Shown: positions 1-17,979 of the stretch, piece by piece
Layout of the letters: the number at the start of each line of letters is the position of its first letter
Numbering within the stretch: position 1 is the first letter of the stretch
Origin: Candidatus Saccharimonadota bacterium
GTDB lineage: Archaea > Micrarchaeota > Micrarchaeia > Micrarchaeales > Micrarchaeaceae
Length of the DNA stretch: 32,000 bases
Assembly (NCBI RefSeq): GCF_002214165.1
Contig: NZ_CP019964.1
Coordinates: 660,001 to 692,000, forward strand
Direction of reading: 5' to 3'
Translations under genes and position numbers: made by a program
Notes under the pieces: model-generated
Told to the model about the DNA's origin: nothing
Seen by the model: only the letters and a program-made list of their open reading frames with translations
Database searches by the model: none

Positions 1-2
1 TT

Positions 3-1115
3 AAGATCTTTGTTTATGAAACAAGCCCATCAATAACTATATTTGACTGGTCCGGCGAATACTCAGATATAACAAATTATACTGTTGGAATAAGGCATGA
101 TCTTAAAAGCCTTGGAATTAACCTTCTTGATCTTTATGGGACCGATCTATTCAAGCCCCTGGTCATTAATGCATTGGAGAACTTTTGCGGGCTTTCAAGC
201 AATGACTGCAACGAGATTTATGATAAAATATCAAATGGATTGGGCAAAGGTAAACGGGATTTCAATGAAGGCATTTCAGGATTTTTTAGAAGAATCCGTA
301 AACCAGGAGTTGGGAAGAAGGTTTTGGCCCTGGATCACTATAAACTATTTAACCAACACCCTGGCATTGACTTGAACGGTATTTTGGATAAATTCCTGTG
401 CTTTGACTTATCGAGCTTGGATGAATTTGGGAAATCCAATTTTTCAAAGCTGCTTCTGCTCCTTTTAAAGCTTGAGATTTATAGGAAAGGGATAAGCACT
501 GGAAAGACTAATTATTTGGTATTTGATGAAGCATGGAAGTATATTAAGGATGATTCAATATTGAATGGCCTTTTCAGGGAAGGGCGAAAGTATGGAGTAA
601 GCCTGCTCATAGCTACCCAAATGGCTTCTGATGTATCGAATGAACTCCTATCAAATGCTGCTTCTGTCTTCATATTCAGGCTGCATAAGGAGGACTATAA
701 AGTTCTGGGCAATTACGGAATTGATTCAAATAGGTTTAGCGGGATAACAGAGAATTTGGGAAGGGGGAGCTGCTTAGTCAGCCAGATATTGAAGGGAGGG
801 ACTTTTTCACAGGCTGTTATAAGTGATGTGAAACATTTCAATCTTTCTGATTACTTGTTGGTTTCAGGTGATAATATGAATTATATATCCAGAATCAGAT
901 TCAAAAATGCAGTCGAAAAGTACTGCACGAATTCAGGGAGCATCCTACGTTTTATGGAGGAGAATAGTAAATTGGATTTATCTAAATTAATAGAGAAGCT
1001 GATTTCTGATGGCAATGACCGGGTTGTGATTGTCACATTGCTGCGCTCTGTCGGTATTGACGATTTTGTTATAGCCTCGGGGTTCGACAATCTAAGATCC
1101 GTCTATTTTGAGTGA
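3..1115 (+). CDS. HerA/VirB4-superfamily (DUF87-type) P-loop ATPase, C-terminal part; 5' end lies upstream of the window
   Basis: Frame 3 is open from nt 3 (KIFVYETSPSITIFDWSGEYSDI...) and runs into the tracked 174..1115 ORF, whose 'M' is an internal TTG. FDWSGEY resembles the HerA-type D-x-x-GEY motif. Walker B LVFDEAW (nt 516-536) followed by GRKYGVSLLIATQ matches the VirB4/TrbE/HerA arrangement. Walker A must lie upstream of the window. Confidence 0.7.
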   Translation, partial: KIFVYETSPSITIFDWSGEYSDITNYTVGIRHDLKSLGINLLDLYGTDLFKPLVINALENFCGLSSNDCNEIYDKISNGLGKGKRDFNEGISGFFRRIRKPGVGKKVLALDHYKLFNQHPGIDLNGILDKFLCFDLSSLDEFGKSNFSKLLLLLLKLEIYRKGISTGKTNYLVFDEAWKYIKDDSILNGLFREGRKYGVSLLIATQMASDVSNELLSNAASVFIFRLHKEDYKVLGNYGIDSNRFSGITENLGRGSCLVSQILKGGTFSQAVISDVKHFNLSDYLLVSGDNMNYISRIRFKNAVEKYCTNSGSILRFMEENSKLDLSKLIEKLISDGNDRVVIVTLLRSVGIDDFVIASGFDNLRSVYFE

Positions 1116-1750
1116 TTTATATGCAATTTTCTTCATCGTTTATGGCAAAAGGTAAGCTGCTTACGGACTTTCATTCTTTATCCGAAGATATAAGCTACCT
1201 GCATCTATTCAAGATAAATAGTTATGGCACTTCACTTGACTATTCCATAGATATGAAAGGAGAGAAACTATCTCTTGTATTCTCTACGAACATGATATCG
1301 TATAGCTTTTATTACGACACTCTTTCAGATAACTATTACTTACTAAACTTTTCAAGGTTCATAAGGCTAATAAATTACTTGAAGAGGCATTACAGGATAG
1401 ACTTTGAATCTGTCTATCCATACCTCTCAAATTCTATTAGCATAAAGCTTGACGAGGCAAAATTGGGCTATTTCAAGAGCGAACAAAAGGTAAAAGGCAA
1501 CATTCTGGAATATTTGGATAACCTGTCTGAATCAAACTTTAACCTTAGCGAGAAATTGATACAAATCAACAGATACAATAAGGATATTTTAAGCGAGCTT
1601 TCGATTTATAAAAAATTTTCTCAAACTGTTGCCTCCAATCTCAGAAAGGCCAATTTTGAGAATGATAGCTTGGAGGAGGCGGCCAGCAGGTCATTTGGAA
1701 TTGATATTAAATTGGCCCATGCAGTATTGAAATCGCTTGGTTACCTGTGA
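1112..1750 (+). CDS. hypothetical protein (soluble, no recognised domain)
   Basis: 212-aa ORF. GTG start overlaps the upstream TGA (GTGA); an alternative ATG is at 1121. Co-directional and coupled with flanking genes. No motif recognised. Confidence 0.55.
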   Translation: MIYMQFSSSFMAKGKLLTDFHSLSEDISYLHLFKINSYGTSLDYSIDMKGEKLSLVFSTNMISYSFYYDTLSDNYYLLNFSRFIRLINYLKRHYRIDFESVYPYLSNSISIKLDEAKLGYFKSEQKVKGNILEYLDNLSESNFNLSEKLIQINRYNKDILSELSIYKKFSQTVASNLRKANFENDSLEEAASRSFGIDIKLAHAVLKSLGYL

Positions 1751-2430
1751 TATATATGGACACCCGCCTGTTGCTTATAATATTTTTCTTGCTTCTTGCC
1801 ACCTTAGTGCTTACAATGCATTATCTGACATATCTTCATATAAGCTATCTTATAGCAGGGCTTTTGGTGCTTGTCGGATCAGTGATACTTTCCAACCTTG
1901 GGAATGATGTGAATAGCTACAAGTATGATATATTTTATAGGGATAAGAGGACATTTAGGTTAACGGATCAATTTTTGGAGCGTGTTGGCATTTATAGGGA
2001 CCAAAGGCCTATGAGATTACAGGATATAAGCGATATTTTGGAAAGGAACGCTGAATTGCCATTGGAGGATGGGTTTTCTAGGAAATTTGAATTAAAAAGT
2101 ATGTTTTTTAGGAGAGGGTTTTTGATCTATGGAGACTTAGTTTTTGGCAATTATGGCCAAGTCAGGAAAAAGCTAATTGCAAAAATGGTATACGATAGGT
2201 CCATTTATGAACACTTTCTATCTTTCTCTGATATGGATAGAACGGTTGCATTGAATAAGGTATTTGACAATCTTGAGCTTGATAAAACCGCCGCAACCGA
2301 TTCGAAATTTATATTTGTGCTTAATCCAGATGAACTGGAAAAGTTCAATTGCCTACTAAACCTCCCATATGCAAACAATTCCCTTTTGGCTTTAAGGATG
2401 GCATTTGGGGATGTTGAGGTGATAAGTTGA
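1747..2430 (+). CDS. hypothetical membrane-anchored protein (two N-terminal hydrophobic helices plus ~170-aa soluble domain)
   Basis: 227-aa ORF. GTGA overlap with the upstream gene; an alternative ATG is at 1756. N-terminus LLLIIFFLLLATLVLT...YLIAGLLVLVGSVILSNL is hydrophobic. Confidence 0.55.
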   Translation: MIYMDTRLLLIIFFLLLATLVLTMHYLTYLHISYLIAGLLVLVGSVILSNLGNDVNSYKYDIFYRDKRTFRLTDQFLERVGIYRDQRPMRLQDISDILERNAELPLEDGFSRKFELKSMFFRRGFLIYGDLVFGNYGQVRKKLIAKMVYDRSIYEHFLSFSDMDRTVALNKVFDNLELDKTAATDSKFIFVLNPDELEKFNCLLNLPYANNSLLALRMAFGDVEVIS

Positions 2431-2621
2431 TTATTTTGGATCTTTTCATTAAGGCTGCATATGCGATATCGTTTGAATTGATAAGTGCTTCCTCCGTTCT
2501 TTTATTCGTTAGTTTTAATGGCAGCAGAAAGCGCGAGCTTAGGCTTGGAATTGACATAGCTTATGGCAGCATGCTGCTTTTGACAATTGCGTTGTTTGTT
2601 GGGATGATACCGTGGCACTGA
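2427..2621 (+). CDS. small membrane protein (about 2 TM)
   Basis: 64-aa ORF with a TTGA start/stop overlap with the upstream gene. Two hydrophobic stretches separated by GSRKRELR. Confidence 0.45.
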   Translation: MIILDLFIKAAYAISFELISASSVLLFVSFNGSRKRELRLGIDIAYGSMLLLTIALFVGMIPWH

Positions 2622-2905
2622 ATATAACTAATGGGATATATCACCATAAAAAGGAAAAGAATCTTGTGGATTCCCTATTATTGGCCGTTTCCTTGGTCCT
2701 TCTCCTATTGCCTATTCCGGTAATCGCCTCAATCCTGCTTAGGCTAAATTTAACGCTGCTTGCCCTTATTTGGCTAATCGCAATCTATGTGGTGTCCTAT
2801 GGTTACGTGAGAGTTGAAAGGTTGTATATACAAAGGAAATATTGGATAGCGGTAGTTGCAATGCAGTCTTTGGCTGCAATTATATTGGTGATGGCAATAT
2901 GGTGA
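2612..2905 (+). CDS. small membrane protein (about 3 TM), in a VirB3-like position directly upstream of an ATPase gene
   Basis: 97-aa ORF. GTG start overlaps the previous stop by 10 nt. Its own TGA (2903-2905) overlaps the ATG (2899) of the next gene. Three hydrophobic segments. Confidence 0.5.
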   Translation: MALNITNGIYHHKKEKNLVDSLLLAVSLVLLLLPIPVIASILLRLNLTLLALIWLIAIYVVSYGYVRVERLYIQRKYWIAVVAMQSLAAIILVMAIW

Positions 2906-5199
2906 ATGCCAGATTTAGTGTTGACTCTGTCCCGGATAATGGCATTGACGCGAGCCTTTTCTTTGATGCAGTTAAAGGAATTCCCTTCGCGATGGTGTTT
3001 GATTTTAATGAGACCAAAACCTATATTGAACTGTTGTCTGATGAACCTGATTTATATGTAAAAGGAATATGCTACAGGATACCGGGGCTGGAATTGTCAA
3101 AAGCGGCCACTGGCCCTTCAAAAGGAAATTTCCGGATTGGTTCATTCTTGAAGGTAAATCTCGATTCGAGAGAGGTCTTAAAAACCAGCCACGGCATATT
3201 TGAGGACTGTTTTAATCTTGGTATAGAGAAAGGGACTTTTGGTATATTGTTTTTGCCGGCTAAAGACCAAGAAATAGAGTACAGTAGCAAGGAGATTGAG
3301 AATTCCCTTACTTCCATAGAAACAAAAGAGACCAGTTCAATCAATTCAAGAATAGCAGGTTATAACTCTTCTTATTCTACGCAACATGACGTATTTTACA
3401 ATTCAGATGATAAAATAGTATTGGGTTATATATTAAATTCCATAAATAAAGCATTACTTAAAGGAAGTGCTGTCTATAAGACCTTATTCTTTACCGATGT
3501 GGAAAACCCTTACATCAATAATTATCTGCACAGCAAATTTTTAATTTTGGAGAGCGGCCTTGTATACAATTATGGCATATCGGATATTGCTGAATACCTA
3601 TCAAAGTCTAAGCAAATCATCTTAGGCAGCAATGAACTGGGATATCTGCTGGATTTTGAAGGCATCCATAGGGTAAACCATATTATTGAAACGGGAAACT
3701 TTCCATCTAAAGGGGACATCGGAATAGGGACAATCATGAAACATGCGGTGTTGGATTCTAATAGGGGCCTGTATTTAGATAGGTCCATTTTGAATCTTGG
3801 CGTATTGATTTCTGGCCTTCCTGGAACTGGCAAAACTCATGAGTCTATGGCTATTGTCGAGCAGGTCATCAAGTTAGGTATTCCAACAGTGGTAATCTCT
3901 TCTACCAAAGAATGGGATAATTTCGCTTACGACAACAATTTATACTGCGTGAGACTGCTAAATGATAAATCACCAATTAATTTCTTCAGCTGTCCTGACA
4001 AATCAAATAGGGACAAGTTTTGGAGGGATCTTGCAATGCTTTTGGCTTCGGCTTCTGACGCGGGACCATATAGGAGGCCTTTGGAAAAATGCCTGATTGA
4101 TGCTTTTAGGAGGATATATAAATCAACTGGGAGCCCTAGCCCTGCCGATGTTATAGAAGAGACAATAAAATCAATAATAGATATGCATGGGAAGAGGACA
4201 AATACCGGAGTCAAATACACAAAGCATGGTGAAAATATAAAAGCGGCGCTTGAGAACCTTATAGATTTGCTAAGCAACGCGGAATATTCATCCGAATTTG
4301 GAATCAAGTTTGAAGATATGCTTGGCAAAGGGGCAGTTTTCGACGCATCAGAAGCTGGATCCAATATGAAGAAGCTTGTTTATTCATTGATACTGAACCA
4401 ATTCTACTCTATAATCTCGTCTACGGATGAATCTGGGGACAATAGCTTAAGGATGCTCCTTGTAGTAGAGGAAGCAGAATTAGTTTTCAAGGACGATGAT
4501 TCTCCGGCTGTGGAAGACATGAGGACAAGAATACAGGATTTCAGGAAAAAGGGCATAGGATTAATATTCATAACACATGGCGCTTTGGAGATAGATTCGG
4601 ATTTAAGGAGGCTGCTACAGATAAAGCTTTATTTTAGGCAATCTTCAGATATGGCCATTTATGCGGTCAAGGACCTCCTTTCGGATATTGATAATGATAG
4701 GCTTGTATCGAAGATAAAGCATATGCCTTCAGGAGTGTTTGGGCTAAGCTCAATTTCAAAAGACGGATATCATAGATATCCCATGGACTTGTTGTTCCTC
4801 AAATCCCTGTTTTACAATTATGCAGGAAAGCGGGACAGGGATCTTATAAAGGGTTACTTAAAATCAAATAGTATACCAATTCCAGAGGAGATATACGAAA
4901 ATCTAGTATTTAGCGGTTATCCGGAATTAAATACAGCTGATTCCCAATCGGAAAAGAATTACAAGATTCTGCAGCGTATAAGCAAGCTTGTTCTGAAATA
5001 CATGGGCAACAAAGTTTATGAGGTGCCGTTTGACAAACTTGAATATGGATTTAATCTAATCAAGGACAGGGTATACGATTTAGAGTTGTCAACTGAAAAC
5101 GATGTTTGCCTGCTGCATCTTGCAATAAAGCCGTCGGGAATTGGGATGAAGATTGGATTTACTTTAAGGCATGGTAAATTGGGGATAGTTGAGAATTGA
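2899..5199 (+). CDS. HerA/VirB4/FtsK-superfamily P-loop ATPase with large N- and C-terminal extensions
   Basis: Walker A GLPGTGKT (nt 3814-3837). Walker B LLVVEEAELVF, then FRKKGIGLIFITHG (the HerA-like GRK-x-G...Q/H arrangement). Start set at ATG 2899 (ATGGTGA overlap with the upstream stop) rather than the tracked TTG at 2842. Confidence 0.75.
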   Translation: MVNARFSVDSVPDNGIDASLFFDAVKGIPFAMVFDFNETKTYIELLSDEPDLYVKGICYRIPGLELSKAATGPSKGNFRIGSFLKVNLDSREVLKTSHGIFEDCFNLGIEKGTFGILFLPAKDQEIEYSSKEIENSLTSIETKETSSINSRIAGYNSSYSTQHDVFYNSDDKIVLGYILNSINKALLKGSAVYKTLFFTDVENPYINNYLHSKFLILESGLVYNYGISDIAEYLSKSKQIILGSNELGYLLDFEGIHRVNHIIETGNFPSKGDIGIGTIMKHAVLDSNRGLYLDRSILNLGVLISGLPGTGKTHESMAIVEQVIKLGIPTVVISSTKEWDNFAYDNNLYCVRLLNDKSPINFFSCPDKSNRDKFWRDLAMLLASASDAGPYRRPLEKCLIDAFRRIYKSTGSPSPADVIEETIKSIIDMHGKRTNTGVKYTKHGENIKAALENLIDLLSNAEYSSEFGIKFEDMLGKGAVFDASEAGSNMKKLVYSLILNQFYSIISSTDESGDNSLRMLLVVEEAELVFKDDDSPAVEDMRTRIQDFRKKGIGLIFITHGALEIDSDLRRLLQIKLYFRQSSDMAIYAVKDLLSDIDNDRLVSKIKHMPSGVFGLSSISKDGYHRYPMDLLFLKSLFYNYAGKRDRDLIKGYLKSNSIPIPEEIYENLVFSGYPELNTADSQSEKNYKILQRISKLVLKYMGNKVYEVPFDKLEYGFNLIKDRVYDLELSTENDVCLLHLAIKPSGIGMKIGFTLRHGKLGIVEN

Positions 5200-5215
5200 A
5201 TAAGTGCCTGTGTAC

Positions 5216-6457
5216 TTATAAGCGCCTTTGCTTAAGCAGATCTGTTAGTATCTTGCTATTTTTTACCCATTCCGAGACATTGATGTCCAATTTTTCATTT
5301 ATATAACGGAACATTTCAGAATAGCTGTCAAGTTCTACAGGTTTTGTCTCAAGAGTCTGCTTTACATGCTCGCGGACATTCCACACGCCTACGGGCAGAG
5401 TATACCCCTCGTGTACTTCACGCAATATCAATACAGACGCTTGCTTCTTCATAGTCTTTAGTTTTTCCCCAACCTCCAGCCTCGCAGCATAATAGCAGCC
5501 TCCAATTTCCGCGTATTTCTTCCTTCCCCTATAACCCTCATATGATGAATATATGGAGATTTCGTTAGAATTCACATTCCAAGTTGTTTTTGGATAAAAC
5601 GCTTCGATCGATTCATATTCCCAATTGCTCGGCATGAATACTATCAGCCACCTGTTGTCCAAAGCAACGTTGTAGAATAACTTTATGTTATCTATCTTTT
5701 CATTGCCCTTCACTTCTTCACGCAATGATTTTGATATTAAGTCGTCAACCATTGTTATGCTCCAGCGGGTCGGGACGAATTTCCTGTTTGACTTCAAGCC
5801 AAATAATCCTGCCGAAACCCCTTTTTGAATTCTATAAACGTCTACCTTGTTTTTATAAAGCTCTTTAACTGCTGTTCCCGCATTGGCGTCATAATCGGAG
5901 TATAATCTCTCTATATCCCTATTTGACCTTGAATTAGACACCATCATGTCCTTTATCTTTACGGTAGGTCCAAAAGGGCTTAGATCCGCATCAAGCTTTG
6001 GCCTTACCAATGGCTTGCCTATGAAGTTTATATCAGAATCAGCAGGCTTGTCTGATAATGCAAGATCCCTAACCTCCTCCTCAACCCTGCCATTCTCGAC
6101 ATCATGTATATTGCTGATATGCATTCCCCTTACAAGCTGCAATCTCATCTGTATTATTTTCTCTATTGGCAGGCCTTTCCATAAAGATGGGTTCGCCAAC
6201 ATCGAAGAGTCTTTCATGAATGGCGAGATCATTGGTCCTATAAACACCTTAGGGTAGCCAAATCTGCCTATAAATATTTCTGTTGGGGAAGATCCACTGA
6301 CATAATCCTTGTCAAGTATACTGCTATACTGGTTCCTATAGTAACTTGAAATTATAGACGGGTTCTTCATATTCCTATATACTTCCATTGACCTCCTTAC
6401 CTTTACCACAGGATTGTTAAAAGAAAGCGAATTTATCAATTTGTTGAGGTCCTCCAT
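5216..6457 (-). CDS. archaeal Nre-family protein (DUF650/DUF651, COG1602; putative DNA-repair associated)
   Basis: 413 aa. N-terminal SPTEIFIGRFGYPKVFIGPM matches my recollection of the conserved Nre N-domain motif, and size and architecture fit. Called from memory of the family, not from a search. Confidence 0.5.
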   Translation of the reverse strand: MEDLNKLINSLSFNNPVVKVRRSMEVYRNMKNPSIISSYYRNQYSSILDKDYVSGSSPTEIFIGRFGYPKVFIGPMISPFMKDSSMLANPSLWKGLPIEKIIQMRLQLVRGMHISNIHDVENGRVEEEVRDLALSDKPADSDINFIGKPLVRPKLDADLSPFGPTVKIKDMMVSNSRSNRDIERLYSDYDANAGTAVKELYKNKVDVYRIQKGVSAGLFGLKSNRKFVPTRWSITMVDDLISKSLREEVKGNEKIDNIKLFYNVALDNRWLIVFMPSNWEYESIEAFYPKTTWNVNSNEISIYSSYEGYRGRKKYAEIGGCYYAARLEVGEKLKTMKKQASVLILREVHEGYTLPVGVWNVREHVKQTLETKPVELDSYSEMFRYINEKLDINVSEWVKNSKILTDLLKQRRL

Positions 6458-17904: not shown

Positions 17905-17979
17905 TGCTCCCACCGAGATTTGAACTCGAGTTTCAGCCTTGAGAGGGCTGTGTCCTTGACCGGGCTAGACGATAGGAGC
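17905..17979 (-). tRNA. tRNA-Glu (anticodon CTC), 75 nt, no intron, CCA not encoded
   Basis: Hand-folded sequence GCTCCTA-TC-GTCT-AGCCCGGTCAA-GGAC-A-CAGCC-CTCTCAA-GGCTG-AAAC-TCGAG-TTCAAAT-CTCGG-TGGGAGC-A. All four stems pair, with G-U wobbles only. Confidence 0.9.

Follow-up and report, generated by a model that had tools for sequence, protein, structure and literature searches.

A conserved nine-gene chromosomal operon of Micrarchaeota encoding a probable conjugation-derived pilus and translocation apparatus

The first 5,199 nucleotides of a 32-kb stretch of the chromosome of Candidatus Mancarchaeum acidiphilum Mia14 (Micrarchaeota, a DPANN archaeon), a stretch referred to here at its full length as the window, carry six tightly coupled genes: a HerA/VirB4-type ATPase truncated by the window edge, four small proteins and a second ATPase of 766 residues. 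The open reading frame (ORF) listing and direct reading of the sequence agree with the genes and the Walker motifs (LVFDEAW, GLPGTGKT and VVEEAELVF) described in the initial annotation of the window. Its first 10 kb are contained exactly in a 116-kb metagenome contig, L001, found via the neighbouring Nre-like gene and converted as window position = 16458 - L001 position. In this contig, three further genes of the operon lie on the same strand upstream of the window edge. A chromosomal operon of nine translationally coupled genes, g1 to g9, has its distal two-thirds at window positions 1-5199; at the edge (positions 1-2, + strand) it runs on upstream, beyond the window, with g1-g3. Gene calls place these three genes on the (-) strand of L001: g1, a predicted prepilin of 129 residues, at L001:18468-18857, roughly 2.0-2.4 kb upstream of where the window starts; g2, 339 residues with 7-8 transmembrane (TM) helices, at L001:17442-18461; and g3 (L001:16688-17452), 254 residues that include a coiled-coil region and, at the N-terminus, a TM hairpin. 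On the + strand of the window follow g4 (3-1115, a frame-3 ORF for residues 82-451 of an ATPase of 451 residues in full, which starts at L001:16698, 240 nt upstream of the window), g5 (1142-1750; soluble, 202 residues, the C-terminal half coiled-coil) and g6 (1756-2430; 224 residues, an N-terminal two-TM anchor and a soluble domain), the last two delimited by ORFs and public gene calls. The ORFs also give g7 (2427-2621; a TM hairpin of 64 residues), g8 (2612-2905; a three-TM protein of 97 residues) and g9 (2899-5199; the soluble 766-residue ATPase). A simple hydropathy scan predicts 0, 2, 2, 3 and 0 TM helices for g5-g9, in line with the earlier description of four small, mostly membrane proteins between the ATPases. 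Membrane proteins account for six of the nine products, one of them pilin-like. A divergent gene for a major facilitator superfamily (MFS) transporter lies 151 bp upstream of g1.

The junctions throughout the operon are overlaps or gaps of 5-6 nt. g3 overlaps both g2 and g4 by 11 nt, and inside the window all five junctions are found as first described: GTGA at 1112-1115 (g4/g5) and at 1747-1750 (g5/g6), TTGA at 2427-2430 (g6/g7), a 10-nt overlap at 2612-2621 (g7/g8), and ATGGTGA at 2899-2905 (g8/g9), where the stop of g8 overlaps the start of g9. However, the first two may have the form "stop, 5 nt, ATG" instead of an overlap, an alternative ATG being present 5 nt past the stop (1121 and 1756). 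The start options are GTG 1112 (212 residues), ATG 1121 (209) and ATG 1142 (202, the public call) for g5, and GTG 1747 (227) and ATG 1756 (224, the public call) for g6; coupling at both junctions is tight whichever start is used. The reported recurrence of one string at these two junctions was also borne out, the 12-mer GTGATWTATATG occurring exactly twice in the 32 kb, at g4/g5 and g5/g6 exclusively, with an expected count of 0.02 and no two occurrences in any of 100 shuffles, a statistic that concerns a pattern picked post hoc.

A likeness to type IV secretion systems (T4SS) had been suggested from the six genes in the window, and it is strengthened by the two genes that head the operon, one for a VirB2/TrbC-like pilin and one for a polytopic membrane protein. 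Judged by its sequence, g1 has the features of a VirB2/TrbC-type pilin, namely a signal peptide and two hydrophobic helices with a basic loop (PEKKASFH) between them, together with a C-terminal N-x-S/T sequon. In the family alignment the N-terminus is variable, the signal-peptide-like hydrophobic segment ends in small residues, and the mature part is highly conserved, with the consensus ...L.Q.GP.LSA.LFI.AGIFYA.GQ..PPDKKA.FHT.A.N.IIGA.VV..LS... The Pfam family T4SS_pilin (PF18895) is matched by 14 of the 18 orthologues and TrbC/VirB2 (PF04956) by 11, at sub-threshold scores and with a best E-value of 7.6e-5, and precomputed Pfam tags on database relatives of g1 name the same two families. Among 177,635 PDB sequences, the top match of the g1 family profile is TrwL, the VirB2 protein of R388 (E 0.22), in an alignment that covers helix 1, the loop and helix 2. 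Moreover, an exhaustive hidden Markov model (HMM) search of 1.84 billion representatives recovered 70 proteins, and among the 56 more distant ones T4SS_pilin is matched by 25 (best 1.9e-6) and TrbC by 18 (best 3.7e-7). As a negative control, T4SS_pilin and TrbC were compared with 41 small TM proteins encoded at positions g7 and g8, and none matched. The AlphaFold2 (AF2) model of the orthologue P0186 (86% identical to g1; predicted local distance difference test, pLDDT, 81) shows a signal-peptide helix and a long helical hairpin.

The gene that adjoins the pilin gene, g2, is the positional counterpart of VirB6, CedA and TedA. Its family comprises 85 clusters with no Pfam domain, in which all named members are Micrarchaeota or Marsarchaeota, and P0211 ("multipass membrane protein" of Ca. 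Mancarchaeum acidiphilum) is 100% identical to it. A CedA-like arrangement, with a pilin-like hairpin starting g2, was considered and dropped, the hhalign comparison of g1 with g2 not being significant. The pairing of the two genes recurs in a distant archaeal contig, where a distant g1 relative is followed by an overlapping gene for a 324-residue g2 homologue (L043:10001-11382; E 9e-30 with the g2 HMM), and no ATPase is present within 10 kb. Because this pair stands without a nearby ATPase, the pilin and the polytopic protein would form a module of their own, in the manner of CedA1-CedA and TedC-TedA. In two other archaeal chromosomes a lone pilin gene (L041:10001-10342 and L044:10001-10375) lies just upstream of a gene for a class-I aminoacyl-tRNA synthetase, and the neighbourhood, one of ribosomal-protein genes, is conserved.

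Both ATPases had been assigned to the HerA/VirB4 superfamily, and family, PDB and structure matches agree on the VirB4/HerA branch of the HerA/FtsK superfamily; their cores are homologous (hhalign probability 97%, E 1e-11), so that at the level of sequence g4 and g9 are paralogues in this part. Within the window, g4 shows the Walker B motif LVFDEAW, GRKYGVSLLIATQ and the arginine-finger region REGRKYG, and its Walker A motif, GMTGSGKT (residues 66-73), is encoded just upstream. The gene is truncated by the window edge, as had been recognised; however, the complete protein is short, with about 60 residues before the P-loop, no N-terminal domain of VirB4 size, and a C-terminal extension of about 110 residues after the core. 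In NCBIfam, all 18 g4 orthologues match CedB (best 3e-23) and also CedD, HerA_antiphage and VirB4/TraC/TrbE models, and against the PDB the g4 profile recovers HerA (1.6e-24) and the VirB4 C-terminal domain (CTD) 4ag5 (2e-15). The tail of g4 (window 780-1112, residues ~340-451) is conserved, with the pattern LI..L...G..R..I...LR.LG..D..I..A; it weakly matches the helix-hairpin-helix (HhH) repeats of topoisomerase V (E 0.006) and may bind DNA.

The other ATPase, g9, carries GLPGTGKT as Walker A and an EEA-type Walker B (VVEEAELVF), and consists of an N-terminal alpha/beta region (residues 1-290), a P-loop core interrupted by a helical insertion (290-600) and, at ~610-766, a C-terminal domain rich in beta structure. 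Its AF2 model (pLDDT 85.7; predicted template modelling score, pTM, 0.77) retrieves in Foldseek, as top matches, the full-length TrwK/VirB4 of the R388 T4SS (8rtd, 7o43 and 7o42; E 9e-15 to 1e-12) over about 800 alignment columns, followed by Sulfolobus HerA 4d2i (1.7e-13), the VirB4 CTD 4ag5, DndH and TrwB/VirD4. Sequence searches with g9 reach the P-loop core only (HerA_C, AAA_10, CedD 1.7e-7, mad8 3.5e-8). In NCBIfam the commonest best match of the g9 family is CedD (22 of 30 members, best 3e-12), followed by the VirB4-like models CD1110 and Mbov_0397, VirB4 models being matched by 12 of the 30, far below threshold. Neither g4 nor g9 has the N-terminal TM anchor of VirD4, and TrwB ranks 25th or lower for g9 in Foldseek. 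Taken together, the pair is better described as belonging to the HerA/VirB4 branch, leaning to the T4SS side, than as members of the VirB4 family. Iterated HMMs of g4 and g9 drifted onto generic P-loop proteins, and therefore family counts for g4 were taken from first-pass phmmer lists only.

Three other ideas on the ATPases were rejected. A virus-packaging role for g9 was dropped because packaging ATPases (A32, STIV B204) are far weaker matches, the top of a viral fold library being large VirB4-like proteins of Bacillus phages. The idea that g3 and g4 are a split VirB4 found no similarity in hhalign comparisons of g3 and g5 with the N-terminal region of g9. Also, a "g9-like" ORF of 920 residues upstream of g9 in one Micrarchaeota metagenome-assembled genome (MAG; L007:2160-4922, +) is unrelated to the cluster; its product joins about eight TM helices to two AAA+ modules of the classical type (CDC48/FtsH-like). 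In the arCOG tables of the Mia14 genome paper, one genome column, probably that of Mia14, holds three HerA-helicase genes (arCOG00280), and VirB4 arCOGs appear in three other columns only (PMC5498576); the tables give no locus tags, and membership of g4 and g9 among the arCOG00280 genes could not be confirmed.

The remaining products are recognised mainly by position. Orthologues of g5 are present in 22-24 loci, at 13-29% identity to the Mia14 protein and with no informative family or PDB match. Counterparts of g6 in most loci have 145-346 residues and 1-2 TM helices, and an HMM built from eight of them matches g6 weakly (15.6 bits). g7, which has a basic loop (GSRKRELR) and no signal peptide, has counterparts of 54-79 residues and two TM helices in about 20 loci, with barely alignable sequences. 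A g8-type gene (80-120 residues, three TM helices) directly precedes g9 in about 22 loci and stands next to it even where g1-g5 are not nearby. Apart from the weak g6 profile match, phmmer aligns none of the small proteins between g5 and g9 with the Mia14 versions. A resemblance to the VirB3-VirB4 arrangement had been pointed out here: the g8-g9 pairing, a small three-TM gene and a large ATPase, is indeed the most constant part of the cluster across genomes, but g8 has no detectable homology to VirB3. It is a candidate membrane anchor for g9.

The cluster is conserved across Micrarchaeota. Searches with g9 give 66 relatives at E <= 1e-86, the next match being at 2.6e-6, and those with an organism name are all from MAGs, nearly all of Micrarchaeota. 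In a scan of one genome per GTDB species, 34 g9 loci were found, all in Micrarchaeota MAGs, plus one spurious cyanobacterial match. Genes in these loci were identified by local phmmer/hmmsearch iterations on six-frame ORFs, which placed g1, g2 and g3 each in 18 loci and g4, with strong scores, in 19. The order g1-g2-g3-g4-g5 is constant, always upstream of g9 and on the same strand, and in most loci the interval between g5 and g9 encodes a TM-anchored protein of 145-346 residues, a two-TM protein of ~54-79 and a three-TM protein of 80-120 abutting g9. The nine-gene order is complete or mostly so in about 17 other Micrarchaeota genomes. Upstream sequence of at least 7 kb is available for 20 other g9 loci; the full colinear cluster is present in 16 of them, and in the rest g9 retains its small three-TM partner, the other genes being elsewhere. 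Identities to the Mia14 proteins are 41-53% for g1, 31-46% for g2, 21-35% for g3, 25-31% for g4 and 29-45% for g9, with one close relative of g9 at 76%. Some family members (P0013, P0029, P0048, P0069, P0140 and others) are labelled Marsarchaeota, Acidoferrales/Acidoferrum or Methanothrix, which probably reflects binning or taxonomy errors in public MAGs; three of the named g9 relatives are of this sort, with the labels Acidoferrales, Methanothrix and Marsarchaeota.

A DNA-repair gene of the Nre type (Pfam Nre_N and Nre_C; window 5216-6457, - strand) converges on the operon 16 nt after g9. It has the same position in 11 other loci, followed in seven by an M24 peptidase gene, and the adjacency may be no more than synteny, or DNA import and repair may be functionally linked. 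An inverted repeat, ATAAGT-N8-ACTTAT (5203-5222), is situated between the stop codon of g9 and that of the convergent Nre gene and may be a terminator hairpin common to both. Several kilobases downstream of g9, a second, weaker g5-like gene is found on the opposite strand in some loci (regions L025:16584-19148, L016:10132-12369 and L020:20789-21517, all on the - strand); in L025 and L016 the second copy includes a g4-like gene too, which suggests a paralogous module.

Based on these observations, the cluster probably represents a chromosomally fixed, conjugation-derived pilus and translocation apparatus, most likely one that moves DNA. Confidence in the kind of machine is moderate to good, and confidence in its cargo is low. 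The core layout, a pilin, a polytopic protein and two HerA/VirB4-type ATPases, is the one published for Ced and Ted (PMC9905601, PMC11823120, PMC11868833), and the best curated families of both ATPases are those of archaeal DNA-import ATPases, CedB for g4 (18/18) and CedD for g9 (22/30). In a mechanism modelled on the Ced/Ted systems and on the R388 structure, the g1 prepilin would be inserted by Sec and its signal peptide removed, after which the hairpin would be pulled out of the membrane to form, by polymerisation, a hollow pilus of VirB2 type or a short conduit. The polytopic g2 would serve as platform or pore, in the role of VirB6, CedA or TedA. The two paralogous ATPases, presumably hexameric, would dock at the cytoplasmic face via small membrane partners, in the pairs g3-g4 and g8-g9; one would drive pilin extraction and assembly and the other the passage of a polymer, most likely DNA, across the membrane, a division of labour like that proposed for CedB/CedD and VirB4/VirD4. 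g5, g6 and g7 would be lineage-specific accessory subunits. The direction of transport, import, is assumed by likeness to Ced.

Several results weigh against such an apparatus. Every family match falls under its curated cut-off: Mia14 g1 reaches 21.9 bits on T4SS_pilin (gathering cut-off 26.6), g4 scores 61 bits on CedB and 64 on CedD against equivalog cut-offs of 700 and 600, and Mia14 g9 scores 30 bits on CedD, again with a cut-off of 600; g4 and g9 are therefore not CedB/CedD orthologues. A hydrophobic hairpin such as that of g1 may resemble a pilin through convergence, and Foldseek with the P0186 model against the PDB returned generic helical hairpins, among them ATP-synthase c subunits and chemoreceptors, none at E < 0.4; this comparison is uninformative because the two-helix fold is too simple. 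For g9, the structural gap between VirB4 and HerA is small (9e-15 versus 1.7e-13), and its Walker B is HerA-like. Profile searches of Pfam and the PDB found no similarity of g2 to VirB6/TrbL and no relatives of known function for g3, g5 or g6, and VirB3 was matched by none of the 41 g7- and g8-like proteins, nor was any Pfam family. The operon has no relaxase, TM-bearing VirD4 or DNA-processing gene; relaxase-like matches are absent among the six window proteins, and public calls list no Pfam family for g1-g3. The VirB3 and VirD4 roles may be filled by analogues. Finally, pili on cells of ARMAN (archaeal Richmond Mine acidophilic nanoorganisms) may be those type IV pili that the Mia14 annotation already includes (PMC5498576).

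Two of the alternatives concern the origin of the locus or its ATPases. Two large ATPases together with membrane proteins are the conserved core of archaeal conjugative plasmids too (PMC12857230), and the Mia14 paper calls genomic islands likely conjugative elements (PMC5498576); the initial annotation had likened the operon to the core of conjugative and integrated plasmids. That the cluster is what remains of an integrated conjugative plasmid or another mobile element, or its core, is nonetheless exceedingly improbable, and this view is already largely refuted. No integrase or replication gene is present in the window, as first reported, and the same holds for the 4.8 kb upstream, where extension through L001 revealed g1-g3; the L001 locus (21 kb) has no integrase, replication gene or tRNA, and no att-like repeat context was found in the 4.8 kb upstream or the 27 kb downstream. 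The sole tRNA gene of the window (17905-17979, - strand; Rfam RF00005, 56 bits) lies 12.7 kb downstream of the operon, is unrelated to it and shows no sign of an integration site. Composition is native, with a guanine-cytosine (GC) content of 0.381 versus 0.394 in the surrounding 29 kb and a tetranucleotide distance from the regional mean of 11.3-11.4, inside the 9.2-13.6 of other 5-kb windows. Moreover, the cluster is colinear with the same downstream housekeeping genes across Micrarchaeota, in genomes with only ~35% identity. Among 72,556 plasmids, g9 had no tblastn matches and g4 six weak, partial ones on bacterial plasmids, and the locus is not part of a recognisable provirus or plasmid. 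A HerA-NurA repair system or an anti-phage defence system (SIR2-HerA, DUF4297-HerA, MADS or Dnd/Dpt-like) with incidental membrane partners is very improbable as well. PADLOC HerA models and mad8 do match both ATPases (E 1e-7 to 1e-10), the best PDB sequence matches of g4 are defence and repair HerA proteins, g9 has the EEA Walker B, and the three arCOG00280 genes in the probable Mia14 column might include g4 or g9. However, these HerA-type matches reflect the shared hexameric P-loop core only, HerA equivalog models scoring 17-58 bits where cut-offs are 800-970. Also, no NurA, Mre11/Rad50, SIR2, DUF4297, nuclease, methyltransferase, Dnd or other defence partner lies in or beside the operon in the window or L001, where membrane proteins and a pilin form the context; a composition with six membrane products, one of them pilin-like, is not known from any HerA repair or defence system described.

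The other two alternatives accept a membrane machine and concern its nature or its cargo. A lineage-specific complex for cell division, membrane remodelling or cytoplasmic bridges, powered by FtsK/HerA-type ATPases and with a merely convergent pilin likeness of g1, would fit the five of nine proteins that have no detectable relatives of known function, the sub-threshold level of all family matches and the inability of Foldseek to tell the g1 hairpin from others. Yet three independent sequence-based lines lead to T4SS pilins specifically, with a clean negative control, and the best full-length structural match of g9 is a VirB4 from an assembled T4SS, which makes this explanation quite improbable. 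More weight, although it is still rather unlikely, can be given to the same T4SS-like apparatus with a cargo other than DNA, that is, a pilus for adhesion or contact, or a conduit through which a metabolically minimal episymbiont would obtain the proteins, lipids, nucleotides or other molecules that it needs from its host, a role already proposed for the essential T4SS of Patescibacteria. All the structural evidence applies equally to it, and the operon lacks a relaxase or DNA-processing gene. Mia14 is without most biosynthetic pathways and depends on Cuniculiplasma (PMC5498576), and the T4SS of Patescibacteria, with VirB2-like pilins, is essential for epibiotic growth and mostly relaxase-free (PMC12102498, PMC12857230). 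Against this stand the closest curated families of both ATPases, the weak HhH-like match of the g4 tail, the conserved Nre neighbour and the extensive gene transfer documented between Mia14 and its host (PMC5498576), none of which is decisive.

A conjugation-derived apparatus in Micrarchaeota would bear on two open questions, how DPANN archaea obtain host material and by what route the heavy gene flow between Micrarchaeota and Thermoplasmatales takes place. Under secretion, the Mia14 paper names Sec, Tat and two loci for type IV pili, and for host interaction it pointed only to type IV pili and unspecified membrane proteins (PMC5498576). The operon, which combines a pilin of T4SS type, a candidate channel and two ATPases resembling DNA translocases, is a concrete candidate machine for host exchange; its filament, its expression and the transfer of DNA are open to study in two existing Micrarchaeota co-cultures. 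No published description linking Micrarchaeota or DPANN to such a cluster was found in a search that covered subscription journals thinly, so an earlier description is possible; a late-2025 T4SS review covers, for archaea, plasmid systems only. It is possible, as a tentative proposal, that Micrarchaeota, and perhaps further DPANN that bear g1-g2, own an ancient, chromosomally fixed descendant of the conjugation machinery that makes the pilus-like connections observed from ARMAN cells to Thermoplasmatales hosts and imports DNA or other macromolecules of the host, a core organ of the episymbiotic life and a third, independent domestication beside Ced and Ted.

Among characterised T4SS, that of R388 (TrwL/VirB2, TrwM/VirB3, TrwK/VirB4, TrwI/VirB6, TrwB/VirD4) supplies both the best structural match of g9 (TrwK) and the best PDB sequence match of g1 (TrwL), and a small TM gene directly precedes the large ATPase in both, as VirB3 precedes VirB4. 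Unlike R388, however, the cluster is not plasmid-borne and has no homologues of VirB1, B5, B7, B8, B9, B10 or B11, no relaxase and no oriT, and homology to VirB3 and VirB6 is undetected.

The closest parallels in archaea are Ced and Ted, domesticated conjugation machineries in which a VirB2-like pilin and a polytopic, VirB6-like protein occur with a VirB4-like ATPase and with CedD or TedD, another ATPase of the HerA superfamily (PMC9905601, PMC11823120, PMC11868833). Their components have no mutual sequence similarity, and a relaxase is absent from both, as it is from archaeal conjugative plasmids (PMC9905601). Ted (TedC, TedA, TedB and TedD of Thermoproteales; PMC9905601, PMC11823120) is, like the Micrarchaeota cluster, chromosomal and relaxase-free. 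It has a VirB2-like pilin bearing a cleavable signal peptide beside a polytopic VirB6-like gene, to which g1 and g2 would correspond, and a VirB4-type and a second HerA-like ATPase at one locus, where the Micrarchaeota cluster has its two HerA/VirB4-type ATPases. In contrast, the Micrarchaeota cluster has no nearby ParA/VirC1 or Rad50 gene, adds five lineage-specific genes (g3, g5-g8), joins all nine in one tightly coupled operon and belongs to a DPANN episymbiont rather than to a free-living hyperthermophile; the g1 profile recovers neither TedC (8DFT) nor CedA1 (8DFU), PDB entries named in PMC11823120, from the PDB at E up to 10. Ced (CedA, CedA1, CedA2, CedB, CedD and CedE of Sulfolobales/Desulfurococcales; PMC11868833, PMC11823120) likewise has two paralogous ATPases of the HerA/VirB4 clade, needed together, and small two-TM proteins with a polytopic membrane protein, and would share with the present cluster an origin in domesticated conjugation machinery. 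Its pilins, however, lack a signal peptide such as that of g1; CedB and CedD mostly anchor themselves in the membrane by TM segments, whereas g4 and g9 are soluble and preceded by separate small TM genes; and its genes are dispersed and UV-induced, not gathered in a single operon. Given the five lineage-specific genes and the failed cut-offs for Ced orthology, the cluster would therefore form a third lineage of this type of machine, separate from Ced/Ted and the T4SS of Patescibacteria but analogous to them. If so, domesticated conjugation machinery would also exist outside Thermoproteota, the home of what were described as its only cases, Ced and Ted (PMC9905601).

The comparison with Patescibacteria (the candidate phyla radiation, CPR; PMC12102498, PMC12857230) reaches into another domain. 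Their T4SS is a bacterial system within the VirB4 clade of the mating-pair-formation class MPF-FATA, with recognisable VirB1, B3, B4, B6, B8 and D4, whereas recognisable similarity in the Micrarchaeota cluster is limited to the pilin and the ATPase cores. Nonetheless, both are phylum-wide chromosomal clusters of ultrasmall, metabolically reduced episymbionts, and the Patescibacteria system too has VirB2-like pilin genes in a monoderm envelope, usually without a relaxase, and is suspected of uptake from the host. On the tentative reading of a core episymbiotic organ, the Micrarchaeota operon would be the archaeal counterpart of this essential T4SS. The parallel with the T4SS recently recognised in ultrasmall bacteria (PMC12857230) would suggest that the two radiations of nano-sized symbionts have convergently adopted one toolkit.

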